Assembly (NCBI GenBank): GCA_030018805.1
Contig: JASEHL010000003.1
Location: 1 to 49,600, forward strand
Direction of reading: 5' to 3'
Source of the DNA: Patescibacteria group bacterium
GTDB taxonomy: Bacteria > Patescibacteriota > Minisyncoccia > Moranbacterales > UBA11712
DNA length: 49,600 bases
In this document: positions 1 to 49,522 of the stretch, piece after piece
How positions within the stretch are numbered: the first letter of the stretch is position 1
Layout: every line of letters begins with the position of its first letter
The notes under the pieces: generated by a model
The model's input: only the letters and a program-made list of their open reading frames with translations
Databases searched by the model: none
What the model was told of the DNA's origin: nothing
Program-made: the position numbers and the translations under genes

Positions 1-20
1 CTTCGCCTAAAGGCGAGGGA
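1..20. repeat. Hairpin resembling an IS200/IS605-type end or REP, truncated at window edge
   Basis: TTCGCCT-AA-AGGCGAG imperfect stem; no transposase inside the window. Confidence 0.3.
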
Positions 21-80
21 ATTTCTCCCATTCCCCGAGGGGGACATTAAAAACTAATAAAAATCTATCACGAAAAAAAG

Positions 81-118
81 AAAAAGGGAAGCCGCTCGCG
101 TTCAGACGACTTCCCTTT
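81..118 (-). terminator. Rho-independent terminator after ORF 134-313
   Basis: Minus strand AAAGGGAAGTCG...CGGCTTCCCTTT stem followed by T runs. Confidence 0.7.
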
Positions 119-133
119 ACAATCCCCCATTAT

Positions 134-313
134 TTAACCGCAAAGCGAACATTCTTGTCTGGCTCTATGCCCGCATAAATCCATCGGTTCTTTTCCGCCC
201 TCGCCTGCGACATAGAGAAATCGATCTCTGATTTCGCCTTGGGGAATTTTACAGCCTTCCGGAAAATCGAATTCTGCCGGAACAACAACTTTTTTCTCGA
301 CTATTTTCGCCAT
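134..313 (-). CDS. Small hypothetical protein (59 aa, C-terminal Cys/His), downstream of Ile-rich attenuator
   Basis: AGGAGG RBS at 320-325 before ATG 313; MAKIVEKK...LCGHRARQECSLCG; followed by terminator. Confidence 0.65.
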   Translation of the reverse strand: MAKIVEKKVVVPAEFDFPEGCKIPQGEIRDRFLYVAGEGGKEPMDLCGHRARQECSLCG

Positions 314-341
314 TTTTTTCCTCCTGATTTGTTTTGAGAAC

Positions 342-372
342 AAAAAAACCCGGCGGTTGCCGAGCCGGTTTT
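342..372 (-). terminator. Attenuator terminator 1
   Basis: Minus strand AACCGGC-tcggcaacc-GCCGGG followed by T7, lying between leader peptide and RBS of ORF 134-313. Confidence 0.75.
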
Positions 373-394
373 GGATTCAAGTTTGTCTCTTCAC

Positions 395-472
395 TCAAAA
401 CGAAAACTCACTCGACAACTTCAGTCGGGTAATAATAATGCTGATAATTATCGAGAAGTTTTTGAAATTCAT
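395..472 (-). CDS. Putative attenuation leader peptide, Ile-rich (MNFKNFSIIISIIITRLKLSSEFSF)
   Basis: Translated by hand; 6 Ile in 7 codons; coding segment GTTGTCGAG can pair with terminator segment CTCGGCAAC. Confidence 0.7.
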   Translation of the reverse strand: MNFKNFSIIISIIITRLKLSSEFSF

Positions 473-480
473 TAGTCTTG

Positions 481-508
481 ATTATACGCGATATTGAAAC
501 TTAGTCAA
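481..508 (-). promoter_or_regulatory. sigma70 promoter for Ile leader
   Basis: TTGACT (503-508), 16 nt, TATAAT (481-486); ATG 8 nt downstream. Confidence 0.75.
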
Positions 509-571
509 CTTCTGGAGTTGGGGACGGACGTATAATGACGACCGGCCCCGGAGATATTTCTTCGGAAAAAA

Positions 572-871
572 TTATCTGGATGACGGGAAGAGCGCTTTGT
601 GGTAAAAATGACGGGCATCGGCCGGGAGAGTTTCCATAGCCTGAAGAACGTCGCCTTTAAAATGCGCAACTTTGCATCCAAAGCGCCAGGGCGTGATTAT
701 GCCAGGACCCACCATTTTAATGCCATCAAGCCCCAGTGATTCCATAAGAGACAACACATCCTGCGCGGAGCAGTCACTTCCCTTAGGAACATGAATAACC
801 TTTCTCCTGCCACCGATAACTTCGTCAAGCGTCCGTATTTTCCCCTGCAGCGTACATTTTCCTACGTCCAT
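572..871 (-). CDS. Hypothetical protein (~99 aa)
   Basis: ORF 572-880; AAGGAGG RBS is best spaced for ATG at 871; upstream TTGACC-17-TATTGT promoter-like site (919-947). Confidence 0.6.
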   Translation of the reverse strand: MDVGKCTLQGKIRTLDEVIGGRRKVIHVPKGSDCSAQDVLSLMESLGLDGIKMVGPGIITPWRFGCKVAHFKGDVLQAMETLPADARHFYHKALFPSSR

Positions 872-993
872 AAATAACATCCTCCTTATAAAAGCAAGTT
901 TGCTTTTTATTTGGATTTACAATACATGTTTATCGTCTTGCGGTCAACAGCAATTATCCATAGCAGAACACACAACTCATAATATAATTATTT

Positions 994-1015
994 GTTATCC
1001 AGTTAACTGGATAAC
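994..1015. promoter_or_regulatory. Perfect 22-bp palindrome, candidate operator
   Basis: GTTATCCAGTT|AACTGGATAAC. Confidence 0.4.
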
Positions 1016-1033
1016 TGGAGAGAATGTCAATAT

Positions 1034-1068
1034 AAAAAAGGGGCCGGATTGATTTGCATCCTGACCCC
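1034..1068 (-). terminator. Rho-independent terminator downstream of ORF 1222-1446
   Basis: Minus strand GGGGTCAGGAT...ATCCGGCCCC followed by T6. Confidence 0.6.
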
Positions 1069-1221
1069 ATATCCCCGCGGTGGGTTCATTCGCCTTGCCT
1101 AAGGGCGACTTTCCGCGATGAATTTTCGCTTTGCGTGGGTTTATCTTCCGAATTTTGGAAGAATTCCGCAAAGCTTTCGGCAGAGAAAATTTTTCACCTC
1201 CTTTGCGCCTTTGCGCTTTTT

Positions 1222-1446
1222 CTACAGCGGGATAATGTTATCCTCGCTTGGTTGGCGAACCGGTTCTCGGCTATCGGGCTGTACTTCAATTACTCTTGGA
1301 CCATTTTCTTTTTTCCTGCAGGATATGCACTTGATTGAGCCGTCGCCCGGATCAATCCTGAAGCCTTTAACTATTTTTCCGGCTTCATTTTGACAAATAT
1401 CCCCGCATTTACAGCACATCCATTCTCCCTCTGGTTTTTTTGGCAT
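1222..1446 (-). CDS. Small Zn-ribbon-like protein (74 aa), downstream of Leu/Val attenuator
   Basis: AAGGAGAGG RBS; CCKC...CISC motifs. Confidence 0.7.
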   Translation of the reverse strand: MPKKPEGEWMCCKCGDICQNEAGKIVKGFRIDPGDGSIKCISCRKKENGPRVIEVQPDSREPVRQPSEDNIIPL

Positions 1447-1487
1447 GATGCCTCTCCTTTCGGCATAATATTTTTTCAGTGGAGTAT

Positions 1488-1518
1488 AAAAAACTCCGCT
1501 GTTTTTCGCCGAGCGGAG
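1488..1518 (-). terminator. Attenuator terminator 2
   Basis: Minus strand CTCCGCT-cggcgaaaaac-AGCGGAG followed by T6. Confidence 0.75.
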
Positions 1519-1548
1519 GGTTCTATCTTCTGAATTTATCGAAATTTT

Positions 1549-1659
1549 CTAGTTGACTAATTTATAAAACCATCTGCCCAGTGAAAAACGCACCACGACG
1601 AGTAGCAGCATAAGAACTAGCAAAGTCTGGAAAGAATTTTTCACTATAGCAGATTGCAT
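1549..1659 (-). CDS. Putative attenuation leader peptide, Leu/Val-rich (MQSAIVKNSFQTLLVLMLLLVVVRFSLGRWFYKLVN)
   Basis: Translated by hand; 10 of 11 consecutive codons are Leu/Val (two CTA); downstream GTTTTTCACTGGGCAGATGGTT is largely complementary to terminator 5' side AACCCTCCGCTCGGCGAAAAAC. Confidence 0.7.
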   Translation of the reverse strand: MQSAIVKNSFQTLLVLMLLLVVVRFSLGRWFYKLVN

Positions 1660-1669
1660 AACAGTTGTT

Positions 1670-1698
1670 AGTTTATCAAATCAGCGGAAAATCGTCAA
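1670..1698 (-). promoter_or_regulatory. sigma70 promoter for Leu/Val leader
   Basis: TTGACG (1693-1698), 17 nt, TAAACT (1670-1675). Confidence 0.7.
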
Positions 1699-1750
1699 CC
1701 CCGTTAGAAATTTTACCTATTTGCCTAAGAAACGGCATTTCTAACGGGGT
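1698..1750. repeat. MITE-like inverted repeat element
   Basis: 14-bp IR ACCCCGTTAGAAAT...ATTTCTAACGGGGT; related IR at 44191-44284. Confidence 0.6.
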
Positions 1751-1759
1751 CAAGAGAAG

Positions 1760-1768
1760 TTATCCACA
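1760..1768 (+). promoter_or_regulatory. Perfect DnaA-box sequence
   Basis: TTATCCACA; single copy, function uncertain. Confidence 0.35.
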
Positions 1769-1776
1769 AGAAAATT

Positions 1777-1806
1777 AAAGGGAGACAGCATAAGATCCGT
1801 CTCCCC
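1777..1806 (-). terminator. Probable terminator after ORF 1851-2135
   Basis: Minus strand GGGAGACGG...CTGTCTCCC followed by TTTAATTTT. Confidence 0.55.
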
Positions 1807-1850
1807 GAGGCTAGTTTGCCCATTTATTTAGGTTTGCTAAGAGGTCGACT

Positions 1851-2135
1851 TTAGCTTTTCCACCAGGCAGCCCTAGCTTGGCCCGTCATACTAAGACAAA
1901 TCCGATAAAACGCGAAAATGTCTTTCGCTTTTTCCAGGGCTTCCCTGACTTCGACATTTTTCATTAAGAATGTCCTTATTTGCCCGCGATTCGCAAGCTC
2001 ATAATCCGAGAAATTCCTCATGGCCAGTGAAAAAAGTGTTTCCCCATGAGAAATTACCTTGCGAGGAGTGCTTCCGCAGAGAGGCCTTCCGATTTTCTCC
2101 ATTAAACCAAAATACCCACTTCCATTTTTTTGCAT
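1851..2135 (-). CDS. Hypothetical protein (94 aa), downstream of aromatic attenuator
   Basis: AAAGGGGAAGG RBS-like sequence before ATG 2135; reading frame uncertain (A7 tract after start). Confidence 0.5.
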   Translation of the reverse strand: MQKNGSGYFGLMEKIGRPLCGSTPRKVISHGETLFSLAMRNFSDYELANRGQIRTFLMKNVEVREALEKAKDIFAFYRICLSMTGQARAAWWKS

Positions 2136-2182
2136 AGCCTTCCCCTTTAGCTGGATTAGCCGTACGACGTGTTTTAAAGAAC

Positions 2183-2213
2183 AAAAAACCGGCCCGTTGG
2201 CCGATTTTGGTTT
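2183..2213 (-). terminator. Attenuator terminator 3
   Basis: Minus strand AAAATCGGCC-aacg-GGCCGGTTTTTT. Confidence 0.75.
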
Positions 2214-2234
2214 GCTTATAATTTCTTCGAAAGC

Positions 2235-2333
2235 TTATGCTTTATTCAAAATTCTACTCAAACCAAAACCGGCCCGGGGTCTAAACCAGAAAAAGAAAAA
2301 ATAGGAATTGATTTTGGTTCGATTGGAATTCAT
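2235..2333 (-). CDS. Putative attenuation leader peptide, Phe/Trp/Tyr-rich (MNSNRTKINSYFFFFWFRPRAGFGLSRILNKA)
   Basis: Translated by hand; YFFFFWF run; coding segment GGCCGGTTTTGGTTT (2260-2274) pairs with terminator 5' arm AAACCAAAATCGGCC. Confidence 0.75.
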   Translation of the reverse strand: MNSNRTKINSYFFFFWFRPRAGFGLSRILNKA

Positions 2334-2339
2334 AATCTT

Positions 2340-2380
2340 AACTTATCATCTCTTGAAATCTTCGTCAAGCATGCTATCAT
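2340..2380. promoter_or_regulatory. Overlapping divergent sigma70 promoters
   Basis: Minus: TTGACG (2363-2368)-17-TAAGTT (2340-2345). Plus: TTGAAA (2353-2358)-16-TATCAT (2375-2380), 4 nt before peptidase ATG. Confidence 0.6.
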
Positions 2381-2384
2381 TTTT

Positions 2385-3530
2385 ATGCCTATGCCCAGAG
2401 TAATTTTCGCCTCCACCCGCGATTCCGACATGCACTACGCGGTGAAAACACCGATCACCAGCTCTTTTTTCTATTTGGAAATAGGAAATAGAAAATTGGC
2501 TTTGCTTGACAAGCGTGATTTCGGTCTCCTAAGGTTTATCCTAAGGCCGAACCTTAGGATAAAAGAAATTGCGCTCGAGCCGCTTTTTGAAAAGGCCGGG
2601 AAATTGAAACATAAAACCTCCGACCGCAACAAGCTGGCCTACCTGATTTTTAAGAAATACGGTTTAATGGGGCGAAAAGTTCAGGTTCCCATCCACTTTC
2701 CCCTTGATATGGCTGATTTTTTGCGTGCTCGTGGCGCGAAACTCGTACCCACTTTTCCGTTTTTTCCGGAACGAGCCAGAAAGACCAAGGAAGAAATAAG
2801 CTGTATCGAAGAGAACCTTACGCATACGAAACTTGCTTTTCGGACAATAGAAAATATACTTCGCCGATCAAAAATAAAGAAAAACAGAATTTACTATCAA
2901 AATAAAATTATTACCAGCGAATTTCTGAAGCAGGAAGTCGAGAAGGCACTCGTTGAAAAAGGAATGTTTGATATGCTGGGAATGATTATTTCTTCGGGAG
3001 AGCAAACCGCCATTCCCCATCATATTGGAACTGGCCCGATCAGGCCTCATCAGCCGATTGTTTGCGACATATTTCCAAGGCATCGCCAATCGGGATATTT
3101 TTCCGATATGACGCGAACTTACGTCAAAGGGAACCCGAGTGAAAAAATAATGCGTATGTATAAGGCTGTTCTCAAGGCCCAACTCGCCGCCATGAAAAAA
3201 ATCCCTGTCTCGCCGGCAGGCGGGCGCGCCGGCGTCAGGGCGAAAGAAATTTACGAAGCGGCGGCAAGTGTAATTATCAAATCAGGTTTTGACGTTGGGG
3301 AAATTGGGCTTACTCACGGCCTTGGACACGGAGTCGGCCTGGACATCCACGAAAAACCGAGTCTCAAACCACTTTCGGAAGATATTTTGGAAGCGGGGAA
3401 TATTATAACCGTTGAACCGGGATTATATTATCCTGGCATAGGGGGAGTACGAATCGAGGATATGATTCTCGTCACAAAAACCGGCTTCAAAAATCTGACA
3501 AATTATCCGAAAAAATTAATAATTCCTTAG
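2385..3530 (+). CDS. Xaa-Pro aminopeptidase / M24 family metallopeptidase
   Basis: [33 protein letters not shown] motifs. Confidence 0.92.
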
Positions 3531-48037: not shown

Positions 48038-49522
48038 ATGACTCTCGACAAACTCTATTCCCGCTACAAAAACCCCCTCAACGCCAAACAAAGGGCTGTC
48101 GTTGCCGAAGCTTTTGAGTTTTCCAAAAACGCGCACGCCGGTCAAAAAAGGAAAACGGGCGAAGACTATTTTGAACATTCCGTCCAGACGGCGGCCATTC
48201 TCGCCGAAATCGGGATGCGCTCGAAAACCACCGCGGCGGCGCTTCTTCACGATGTTCCGGAAGACACGAAATACACTCTTTCCGACATCCGCCAAAAATT
48301 CGGGGACGAAATCGCGGGACTCGTCGACGGCATCACGAAGCTCGGAAAATTCAAACTGCGGGGAGACAAAAAAGAAGTCCAGCTCGAAAACCTTCGCAAA
48401 ATTTTTCTGGCGATGGCCGAAGATATCCGGGTGGTTCTCATCAAACTCGCCGACCGGCTTCACAATATGAGGACTTTGGGCGCTCTTCCTCCGGAGAAAC
48501 AGCAAAGAATCGCGAAAGAGACCATGGAAATTTTTGCTCCCATCGCCAATCGGCTCGGAATCGGAGAAATAAAAGGCGAGCTCGAAGACTTGTCGTTCAA
48601 GTATCTTGACCCGAAAAATTTCGCGCTGGCGCGGGAAATCCTTGAAAAAGAATTCAAGGAGCAAAAAAAATACATCGACCTCGCGATTGAAGAGCTCAAA
48701 AAAGAACTCTCGGACAGCAAAATAAAAGTGATTGACGTTCACGGCCGGGCCAAGCATACCTATCGATTTTTTTTGAAGCTCAAAAAATACGACATGGACG
48801 TGAGCCGCGTTTATGACGTCATGGCGGTACGGGTGATTGTCCCAGCCATTCCCGACTGCTACGAAGCACTCGGAATTGTTCACAAAAAATATCGCCCGCT
48901 GGTCGGCCGCATCAAGGACTATATTTCCCTTCCCAAGCCCAACGGATACCGCTCGATTCACACGACTGTTTTCGGCCCAACGGGAAAAATCATCGAGGTG
49001 CAGATAAGAACGCCCCGGATGCATGACGAAGCCGAATTCGGTATCGCCGCCCATTGGATATATTCCTCGGCCAGAACCTGGCGCGACTATTTCCTTCGCC
49101 GTTATTCTCCGGAAGAAATTCCCGAGGAAGAACTGCAGTGGGTGAAACAGCTTCGCGAATGGCAAAAAGAGCTGGGGTCCGACAACATAGAATTCATGCA
49201 GGGCCTTCGGATTGATTTTTTTCAAAATCAGATTTTCGCTTTCACTCCCAAAGGAGACATCATCAATCTCCCCGAAGACGCCACCCCGATTGACTTCGCC
49301 TACGCGGTACACAGCGAAATCGGATGTCGCACCACCGGCGCTAAAGTGGACGGAAAATTGGTTCCGCTTGATTACAAAATTCGAAACGGGCAAGTGGTTG
49401 AAATTCTTGTTTCAAAAGACCTGAAAATGCCCAATCAGGACTGGTTGCGGATCGCCCGGACTTCCTACGCGCGGGGACGCATCCGCTCCCAACTGCGAAA
49501 AGCGGGAATAATGACAAAATAG
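48038..49522 (+). CDS. RelA/SpoT family (p)ppGpp synthetase/hydrolase (HD, synthetase, TGS; no ZFD/ACT)
   Basis: LLHDVPED, KLADRLHNMRT, GRAK, PKPNGYRSIHT, EVQIRT, FTPKG, DFAYAVHS. Confidence 0.95.
   Translation: MTLDKLYSRYKNPLNAKQRAVVAEAFEFSKNAHAGQKRKTGEDYFEHSVQTAAILAEIGMRSKTTAAALLHDVPEDTKYTLSDIRQKFGDEIAGLVDGITKLGKFKLRGDKKEVQLENLRKIFLAMAEDIRVVLIKLADRLHNMRTLGALPPEKQQRIAKETMEIFAPIANRLGIGEIKGELEDLSFKYLDPKNFALAREILEKEFKEQKKYIDLAIEELKKELSDSKIKVIDVHGRAKHTYRFFLKLKKYDMDVSRVYDVMAVRVIVPAIPDCYEALGIVHKKYRPLVGRIKDYISLPKPNGYRSIHTTVFGPTGKIIEVQIRTPRMHDEAEFGIAAHWIYSSARTWRDYFLRRYSPEEIPEEELQWVKQLREWQKELGSDNIEFMQGLRIDFFQNQIFAFTPKGDIINLPEDATPIDFAYAVHSEIGCRTTGAKVDGKLVPLDYKIRNGQVVEILVSKDLKMPNQDWLRIARTSYARGRIRSQLRKAGIMTK

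Follow-up and report, generated by a model that had tools for sequence, protein, structure and literature searches.

The window, a stretch of 49,600 nt from a Patescibacteria group bacterium (GenBank assembly GCA_030018805.1, contig JASEHL010000003.1, positions 1 to 49,600), carries three co-oriented cassettes on its minus strand between positions 134 and 2368, which are called C1, C2, and C3 here. Each cassette consists of a promoter, an ATG near the inferred transcript start, a leader open reading frame (ORF) of 25-36 amino acids (aa) that contains a run of codons, an antiterminator and a terminator, a ribosome-binding site (RBS), and a small gene, referred to below as the cargo, which encodes 94 aa in C1, 74 aa in C2, and 59 aa in C3. 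This layout had been proposed from the letters of the DNA, and the promoter, the near ATG, the run-bearing ORF, the hairpin with its U-tract, the RBS, and the small gene were all located on the minus strand, to which the coordinates of the cassettes refer.

First, the anatomy of C1 was mapped. Its promoter (2340-2368) has the -35 hexamer TTGACG (2368-2363), a 17-nt spacer, and the -10 hexamer TAAGTT (2345-2340), with the ATG 6 nt further on; the -35 hexamer and its position are kept in relatives. The leader ORF (2235-2333) encodes the 32-aa peptide MNSNRTKINSYFFFFWFRPRAGFGLSRILNKA with the run YFFFFWF, and the aromatic control codons lie at 2303-2283. In the antiterminator (2203-2277), a coding segment at about 2277-2248 pairs with 2225-2203, overlapping the 5' arm of the attenuator terminator (2179-2208), whose stem (2208-2185) is followed by a U-run. 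The cargo gene (1851-2135), with the RBS GGGGAAGG upstream, encodes a 94-aa protein of no known family with a predicted five-helix fold.

The promoter of C2 (1670-1698) reads TTGACG-17-TAAACT, with the ATG 10 nt downstream. The leader ORF (1549-1659) encodes the 36-aa peptide MQSAIVKNSFQTLLVLMLLLVVVRFSLGRWFYKLVN, in which the run LLVLMLLLVVV is specified by Leu, Val, and Met codons at 1623-1591. The antiterminator (1501-1589) joins the coding segment 1589-1567 with 1523-1501, that is, with the 5' arm and loop of the terminator, and the attenuator terminator (1486-1518) is a stem (1518-1494) followed by a U-run, with a loop over the limit of the consensus hairpin scan. The cargo gene (1222-1446; RBS AAAGGAGAGG) encodes a 74-aa protein of no known family, which carries CxxC pairs and is zinc-ribbon-like by motif.

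The promoter of C3 reads TTGACT-16-TATAAT (481-508; 11/12 consensus matches), with the ATG 8 nt downstream. The 25-aa peptide MNFKNFSIIISIIITRLKLSSEFSF of its leader ORF (395-472) contains the run IIISIII, with the Ile codons at 451-431. In the antiterminator (350-428), 419-394 pairs with 381-356, which includes the terminator's 5' arm, and a second pairing joins 428-424 to 354-350 in the 3' arm; the attenuator terminator itself (340-366) has a stem at 366-347 and then a U-run. The cargo gene (134-313; RBS CAGGAGG) encodes a Cys-containing 59-aa protein of no known family. The sequence-only reading had given every cargo gene a terminator of its own. This held for C1 (1770-1806; hairpin 1806-1779) and for C3 (72-118; z-score -3.61), and it did not hold for C2, in which the next terminator-like hairpin (1034-1068) lies about 155 nt beyond the stop codon and has a fold z-score of only -1.56. 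The consensus promoter scan found no promoter-like site between any of the three attenuator terminators and its cargo gene.

The leader ATGs sit 6 nt (C1), 10 nt (C2), and 8 nt (C3) past the -10 hexamer, and no Shine-Dalgarno sequence precedes them. Because of this short spacing and the absence of a Shine-Dalgarno sequence, the transcripts are probably leaderless. The hydrophobic stretch of the leader peptides is about 7-10 residues long in C1 and C3 and about 18 residues long in C2; small membrane peptides of the type I toxin kind would need about 18 residues or more to span a membrane.

The folding of 28 leaders, namely the three of the window and the aligned loci of relatives, was analyzed by computation. 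The ribosome was mimicked by blocking a 28-nt footprint codon by codon, and terminator probabilities were obtained from the partition function. The minimum-energy fold was an antiterminator of about 20 bp in C1, and a hairpin within the leader together with the terminator in C2 and C3. In each window cassette the antiterminator lasted while the P-site was on or before the run, and the terminator appeared once the ribosome was past it. With the ribosome stalled on the run, the terminator probability was 0.006 in C3, 0.000 in C1, and 0.000 in C2, values that were reached by 0/300 dinucleotide shuffles of the spacer for each cassette; with the ribosome at the stop codon it was 0.86, 0.95, and 0.95, respectively. 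The same behavior was seen across the set, as the terminator probability was at most 0.1 with the ribosome on the run and at least 0.5 with the ribosome at the stop codon in 28/28 leaders, while spacer shuffles gave a stalled probability of 0.1 or less in 187 of 3400 cases. Constrained RNA folding had been suggested as a check on the sequence-only reading, and in every one of the 28 leaders the position at which the footprint turned read-through into termination coincided with the end of the run. A coding segment complementary to the 5' side of the terminator, which had also been noted earlier, was confirmed in the folds of all three cassettes. In silico, the antiterminator and the terminator exclude each other and depend on the position of the ribosome, as in leader-peptide attenuators. 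At ribosome-free equilibrium C1 adopted the antiterminator, C2 and C3 of the window were mixed (terminator probability 0.59 and 0.64), and most of the relatives' C3 leaders folded as the antiterminator. Because free C1 and most of the relatives' C3 leaders fold in this way, the default of untranslated RNA leans to read-through.

We analyzed the conservation of the region by blastn against 40 related genomes. Matches were found in 13 of them, among which were 11 of the 18 genomes of the same family. The matching pieces were the leaders, at 68-88% identity, and not the cargo genes, with one weak exception in a 99-aa gene (572-871). The cargo could not be aligned across genera, and no other DNA of the locus is as well conserved as the leaders. 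All aligned loci, the window included, retained the -35 hexamer, the spacing up to the ATG, the frame of the leader ORF, and the run (C1, 10/10; C2, 9/9; C3, 9/9); loss of the frame or the run in orthologous loci, which had been named beforehand as evidence against attenuation, was thus not seen in the scan of related genomes. Within the runs the residues were kept while the codons varied: ATT, ATC, and ATA were used 36, 13, and 7 times, TTT and TTC 30 and 17 times, and Leu was specified by five different codons. The order C1-C2-C3 was the same in six genomes. The leaders of the array keep a single order across genomes, and the genes behind them are exchanged.

Covariance models of the three leaders were also searched against partial genome samples, 151 genomes of the order for C3 and C2 and 151 across the class for C1, in which the relatives are not independent of each other. 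The C3 model matched 22/151 genomes of the order, the genome of the window included, with matches in 8/18 genomes of the family and in four other families. The C2 model matched 21/151 genomes of the order and 15/18 in the family, and the C1 model had matches in 3/151 genomes across the class. All three leaders occur on one strand and in the same order in L054, a Candidatus Moranbacteria metagenome-assembled genome (MAG) record, with scores of 159, 142, and 127 bits, which agrees with the earlier description of the cell as being of the Candidate Phyla Radiation (CPR) type; Moranbacteria belong to this group of uncultured bacteria with tiny genomes. L054 had been found by a two-part pattern scan of a genome collection; the pattern was loose, and of the at least 119 stretches matched, nearly all came from unrelated phyla and were taken as chance, and L054 alone was used. 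The three leaders had been said to share no obvious similarity, and this was mostly so, except that the C2 model weakly matched the C1 leader (15.8 bits) and the C3 model picked C1-like leaders elsewhere.

The runs of 15 further loci found by the C3 model were examined. Seven were Ile runs, of which three were read by eye with a GTG start or a start further upstream, three were Asn/Gln runs (NNNQQQNN), one was aromatic, two were mixtures of I, L, F, and Y, and two loci had no clear run. Across families, 5-8 Ile codons and 7-9 aromatic codons per 11-codon window were kept. The same leader skeletons were also observed with other peptides (L054, 5972-6111; L201; L209, 1090-1249; L034, L041, and L042; L044, 1501-1630), including the Lys-rich peptides MKKDAKKTNFLAGFGLSKISAA and …ILKKKFIQNFGFSLSKVF, peptides with …NNNQQQNN…, and a second Ile-type leader before a citramalate-synthase-like gene in genome G006. 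The array of L054 contains at least five leader-like cassettes.

The consensus structure given by RNAalifold was the antiterminator in all three leader alignments. In the C3 alignment 97.0% of the cells of the antiterminator pairing were paired, in comparison with 23-55% when the partners were slid, and five pairs had changed on both sides (0-1 when slid). In the C1 alignment of 10 sequences the corresponding values were 98.4% and 31-63%, with two pairs changed on both sides, and in the C2 alignment they were 94.7% and 31-54%, again with two such pairs. As for the covariation that had been proposed as a test, C3 showed five double-changed pairs, the covariation of C2 was not above that of shuffles, and C1 and C2 are backed mainly by conservation.

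The whole 1.02-Mb genome was scanned for similar cassettes in two ways, by a strict scan (promoter, start, ORF of 8-50 aa, and terminator) and by a relaxed scan (terminator-like sites with a run). The strict scan gave four matches, among which were C1 and C3; C2 was missed because the loop of its terminator is long. The relaxed scan reduced 2018 terminator-like sites to 16 rows with a run of at least 4/7, and the top three runs (6 Ile, 5 Phe, and 5 Leu) were those of C3, C1, and C2. Neither scan revealed another cassette comparable to C1, C2, and C3. A further arrangement was noted at G000:C20:10846-11330 on the plus strand, where a strong promoter, an ATG 7 nt past the -10 hexamer, a 14-aa ORF (MPRNTDHKEIATVS), a GC-rich terminator, and an RBS precede a Cys-rich ORF of 99 aa; no codon run and no antiterminator were seen in it. 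A genome-wide count of leaderless genes, which was based on crude ORF calls, found a strong promoter at leaderless distance in 3/904 cases and in none of the control, and was uninformative.

Next, the genes behind the leaders of relatives were examined for links to the amino acid of the run. In G006 (L012), small ORFs lie behind the aromatic leader, and after them comes a gene for a 504-aa protein with PDH_N and PDT domains (prephenate dehydrogenase/dehydratase). In G012 (L015), a gene for an HMGL-like protein stands directly after the Ile leader, and in G006 a second Ile-type leader (MKSPSRSKNIIGIIQ…) stands directly before an HMGL-like gene. Citramalate synthase carries out the first step of one route to isoleucine, and it was the best NCBIfam model of the HMGL-like proteins of both G006 and G012, although both scored below its cut-off. 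Cognate cargo was thus found in relatives for the aromatic leader and for the Ile leaders. Among 19 genomes of the family, PDT was present in one and an HMGL-like gene in two, and all three genes lie behind the cognate leader (3/3). An aromatic leader of another family precedes the gene for a protein with an ACT domain. The prephenate dehydrogenase/dehydratase and citramalate-synthase-like genes behind the leaders look like isolated enzymes.

The genome of the window, which is rated 99.7% complete, was searched for biosynthesis genes. PDT, HMGL-like, ILVD_EDD, chorismate synthase, Iso_dh, and KARI were not found in it, while the same searches were positive in 14/14 control genomes, so that the earlier suggestion of an auxotrophic cell is borne out for these six families. 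A tblastn search of window positions 1-2400 found no remnants of ROK, PDT, or CimA genes, and only the 99-aa gene matched its homologue. The idea that the attenuators stand in for a missing stringent response was rejected, as a RelA_SpoT gene is present in the window. This gene, at 48743-49069 on the plus strand (domain match of 124.7 bits in a 496-aa open frame), gives the organism a (p)ppGpp enzyme besides the attenuators.

Taken together, these data suggest that C1, C2, and C3 are ribosome-mediated leader-peptide transcription attenuators of the phe, ilv, and leu type that have been uncoupled from biosynthesis, and we put the probability of this reading at roughly three in four. We infer from the sequence a leaderless start, coupling between ribosome and polymerase, and a response to starvation. 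Transcription would start a few bases before the ATG, and the ribosome would load on the 5' end of the RNA. When charged tRNA is ample, the ribosome would translate past the control codons and melt the coding segment behind them, which forms the antiterminator's 5' strand, the terminator hairpin and U-run would form, and transcription would stop before the small gene. When the ribosome is stalled on the run, the antiterminator would sequester the terminator's 5' arm, and in C3 its 3' arm as well, and the polymerase would read into the cargo gene. The runs sensed would be Phe/Tyr/Trp in C1, Leu/Val/Met in C2, and Ile in C3. This would be the three-segment form of attenuation, in which passage of the ribosome over the run promotes termination. 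A short ORF with clustered control codons (25-36 aa, with runs of 7-11 codons, in the window) was kept in 28/28 loci, and a terminator stands between leader and gene in all three cassettes and in all 28 leaders. The logic of ribosome stalling, which the sequence-only reading had taken over from the ilv, leu, and phe leaders, thus gains support from the kept frames and runs, the consensus antiterminators, the 28/28 switch points, and the cognate enzyme genes in relatives.

The cargo proteins gave few clues to their function. The three cargo proteins of the window had no Pfam or NCBIfam family match. The 94-aa protein had no match in a word-based search; an exhaustive search found two clusters, with 56% and 36% identity over the full length. 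Its AlphaFold model has five helices at a predicted local distance difference test (pLDDT) score of 79, and had no match in the PDB at E ≤0.001. A metagenome scan for the 94-aa family yielded one contig of 1249 bp, which ends 35 nt upstream of the gene, so that the leader side is outside the contig. The 74-aa protein has CxxC pairs and one related cluster (86% identity), and the search with the 59-aa protein returned only itself. When 53 cargo proteins of relatives were compared with Pfam, one gave a clear match (ACT_8) and three others had matches at E 0.002 or weaker. A protein atlas offered no usable lead on cargo function. The BLASTP clusters of the cargo were small and tracked the leader type; the C2 cargo was a small multi-CxxC protein in every locus examined. 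The downstream genes differed between genomes and genera. Our guess is that the cargo genes encode regulatory or adaptor proteins induced by starvation.

There is a hint in the sequences that, within the family, the cargo is poorest in the residue sensed by its own leader. The cognate-residue fractions of the first cargo were 0.064 for aromatic residues, 0.107 for Leu plus Val, and 0.049 for Ile, in comparison with backgrounds of 0.097, 0.153, and 0.077, and 4/5000 label permutations gave values as low, although the proteins within a group are related and not independent. The depletion did not extend to the Ile cargo in other families.

Several observations weigh against our main reading. In the window, none of the cargo genes is linked to the synthesis, charging, or uptake of the amino acid sensed, and aromatic residues are not depleted in the C1 cargo (0.117 in comparison with the background of 0.097). 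The C2 leader was never found beside a branched-chain biosynthesis gene in the loci examined, its run in many relatives is made up of about 18-20 hydrophobic residues of mixed kind (L, V, I, F, M, and A), which could equally form a membrane helix, and its covariation was not above that of shuffles (49-73/500 were as high). The amino-acid specificity of C2 is the least certain point. The antiterminators of C1 and C2 are mostly invariant, and are therefore backed by conservation more than by covariation. The -10 hexamer of C1, TAAGTT, is weak (3/6 consensus matches), was found by pattern search, and was not listed by the consensus scan; the leaderless start was read from promoter spacing. ILVD_EDD and Iso_dh were not found in G006 or G012, and the citramalate-synthase-like gene therefore lies outside a complete pathway. 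Finally, there are leader-like elements in relatives that have no clear codon run (G225 and G124) and Lys-rich variants (L054, L201, and L209). As run-less elements exist, part of the family may sense translation generally.

Three other explanations were weighed against these data. The conserved product might be the small hydrophobic leader peptide, or the leader RNA released at the terminator and acting in trans, with the cargo being secondary; this is compatible with attenuation, and we consider it improbable as the main role. It would account for leaders that are far better conserved than the cargo. Since residues are kept while synonymous codons vary, the constraint on the peptides is at the amino-acid level, and the stretch in the C2 peptide is long enough for a membrane helix. 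A precedent is offered by Sinorhizobium meliloti trpL, where products of the attenuator (the RNA rnTrpL and the peptide peTrpL) are reported to act beyond the operon, a possible reason for leaders to outlast their cargo here. However, C1 and C3 have short hydrophobic stretches, of about 7-10 residues. No sign of action in trans, and no target for it, was seen for the present leaders, although no search aimed at such targets was made. The residues after the run are encoded by the antiterminator strand, and RNA pairing therefore explains their conservation. The association with cognate enzymes would also not be expected if the peptide were all that mattered.

A slightly less probable alternative is that the leaders are relics of lost aromatic and branched-chain operons, without regulation that matters, and that the small ORFs behind them are incidental. 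The biosynthesis genes were not found in the genome of the window or in most relatives, and where the citramalate-synthase-like gene survives, the rest of the pathway was not found. The cargo differs by genus, and that of the window consists of near-orphans, for which the word-based search gave 0, 1, and 0 further clusters, and the exhaustive one only two clusters for the 94-aa protein. However, relics would hardly be the best-conserved DNA of the locus across genera in which the cargo cannot be aligned. The promoter, frame, run, antiterminator, and terminator were intact in 28/28 loci, in genera without the enzymes, and C2-type leaders are present in 15/18 other genomes of the family. In addition, the cargo genes have strong RBSs, the 94-aa protein has full-length homologues (56% and 36% identity), and window positions 1-2400 hold no ROK, PDT, or CimA remnants detectable by tblastn.

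The least probable alternative, that the leaders, in the manner of the erm or mef/mel leader peptides, sense translation stress in general (antibiotics, shortage of ribosomes, or overall starvation), draws on the antiterminator fold of most free leaders, by which any failure of translation would give read-through, on the members without a clear run (G225 and G124) or with Lys-rich peptides (L054, L201, and L209), and on the chemically mixed C2 runs, so that it is most plausible for C2 and the run-less members of the family; however, the Ile and aromatic runs are kept across families, the leader type equals the enzyme type in 3/3 cases in the family, and one array carries different runs in different leaders.

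Attenuation by amino-acid-specific stalling was also compared with known systems, for which the features of the Escherichia coli pheL and ilv/leu leaders served as the reference. C2 is like the ilvGMEDA, ilvBN, and leu leaders in having a leader rich in Leu and Val, plus Ile and Met, and a terminator with a competing antiterminator. In contrast to them, it has no Rfam match, its cargo in the loci examined is a small CxxC protein and never an ilv or leu gene, and Ile has its own leader (C3). C1 is like the pheL/pheA and pheST attenuators of gamma-proteobacteria (Rfam Phe_leader, RF01859), in which a short ORF with a run of Phe codons is combined with antiterminator and terminator alternatives. 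However, the run of C1 mixes Phe, Tyr, and Trp, its start is probably leaderless, and its cargo is a 94-aa protein of no known family. C1 also has no 1:2 pause hairpin, so that untranslated RNA defaults to read-through. In whole-length comparisons with Rfam, Phe_leader scored 20.5 bits over C1 and Thr_leader (RF00506) scored 19.2 bits over C3; the gathering score of each is 55, so that the leaders are not members of these families. No Rfam family reached its gathering score anywhere in the window.

T-box riboswitches sense tRNA charging at terminators before amino-acid genes of Gram-positive bacteria, and they bind the tRNA directly and have no leader ORF. With E allowed up to 10, the T-box model (RF00230) had no match in positions 1-3000, and none in the whole window reached the gathering score. 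The only match in the genome, below threshold (29.9 bits in comparison with a gathering score of 93; E 3.3e-5), was seen on another contig, at G000:C56:2922-3162 on the plus strand.

A leaderless form of attenuation has been described in Corynebacterium glutamicum, where, according to PMC11857589, the leader peptide of ilvBNC is made from a leaderless transcript and the choice between terminator and antiterminator depends on few hairpins. For the same species, PMC3890552 describes leader peptides before trpE, leuA, ilvB, and aroF. In contrast to the leaders described here, ilvBNC belongs to another phylum, the genes controlled are biosynthesis genes, and an anti-antiterminator hairpin blocks initiation. 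The sequence-only reading knew of no description of such attenuators, and in the full-text literature searched, in which subscription journals were thinly covered, none was found for the Candidate Phyla Radiation or Moranbacteria. The mechanism is familiar; what is not is the group of bacteria in which it occurs, the ordering of the leaders in an array, and an orphan cargo outside biosynthesis.

Leader-peptide attenuation is textbook knowledge for bacteria that make amino acids, and is unexpected in cells unable to make them. If our reading is true, bacteria that are probably host-dependent gauge the supply of specific amino acids by ribosome stalling, which would hint at the amino acids that matter most to them (aromatic, branched-chain, and Ile). 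The small orphan proteins would be marked as a shortage response, and thus as candidates for study in organisms not yet grown alone. The leaders would also represent three new RNA families, with covariance models for annotating the genomes of the group, and a natural case of regulatory leaders that outlive and swap their cargo.

A wider proposal, which we regard as doubtful though worth stating, is that these leaders form a modular, evolvable family of leaderless attenuators, in which one RNA skeleton takes swappable runs (aromatic, branched-chain, Ile, Asn/Gln, and possibly Lys-rich), and that the family has been uncoupled from biosynthesis. They would be gauges of charged tRNA that switch on fast-evolving, tiny, zinc-ribbon-like or helical proteins, which in this family tend to be poor in the cognate residue, when an amino acid supplied by the host is short; the branched-chain unit would have a second input through the conserved DnaA-box-like site at its promoter, linking the supply of amino acids with the control of replication.

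Upstream of the C2 promoter, window positions 1760-1768 (TGTGGATAA on the minus strand) match the DnaA-box consensus exactly. In relatives, a DnaA-like box with at most one mismatch has a fixed place, 53-57 nt ahead of the ATG of the leader and directly 5' of the -35 hexamer, in 15/20 C2 loci, in comparison with 0/10 for C1 and 1/9 for C3. DnaA boxes were not enriched across the window (13 in comparison with 9.6 expected). Between the DnaA-box-like site and the -35 hexamer of C2 there is a 51-bp element (1699-1749) with the inverted ends CCCCGTTAGAAAT … ATTTCTAACGGGG and TTGAC on both flanks. It resembles an insertion of a small transposable element that may have rebuilt the -35 hexamer of C2. 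Its end motif had four matches in the window with at most one mismatch, where 0.19 were expected, and L189 and L197 also carry it ahead of C2-type leaders.

A perfect 20-bp palindrome, TTATCCAGTTAACTGGATAA, at window positions 995-1014 lies upstream of the conserved 99-aa gene at 572-871, whose product shares 54% identity with a relative's protein of 121 aa. In L054, a C2-like leader with a Lys-rich peptide (2761-2877) stands before the homologue of this gene, and the window has no such leader. A candidate remnant of a Cys-rich small ORF at window positions 1220-1035 was rejected, as its alignment scores were not above those of shuffles.

On the other side of the array, a gene for an M24 peptidase (2385-3530, plus strand; Pfam) is transcribed divergently and starts 16 nt from the -35 hexamer of C1. 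Within 2353-2385 (plus strand), a promoter-like site, TTGAAA-16-TATCAT, ends 4 nt before its ATG, and the M24 gene may therefore be leaderless as well. Judging by shared antisense ORFs, the M24 peptidase gene adjoins the aromatic leader in several relatives as well.

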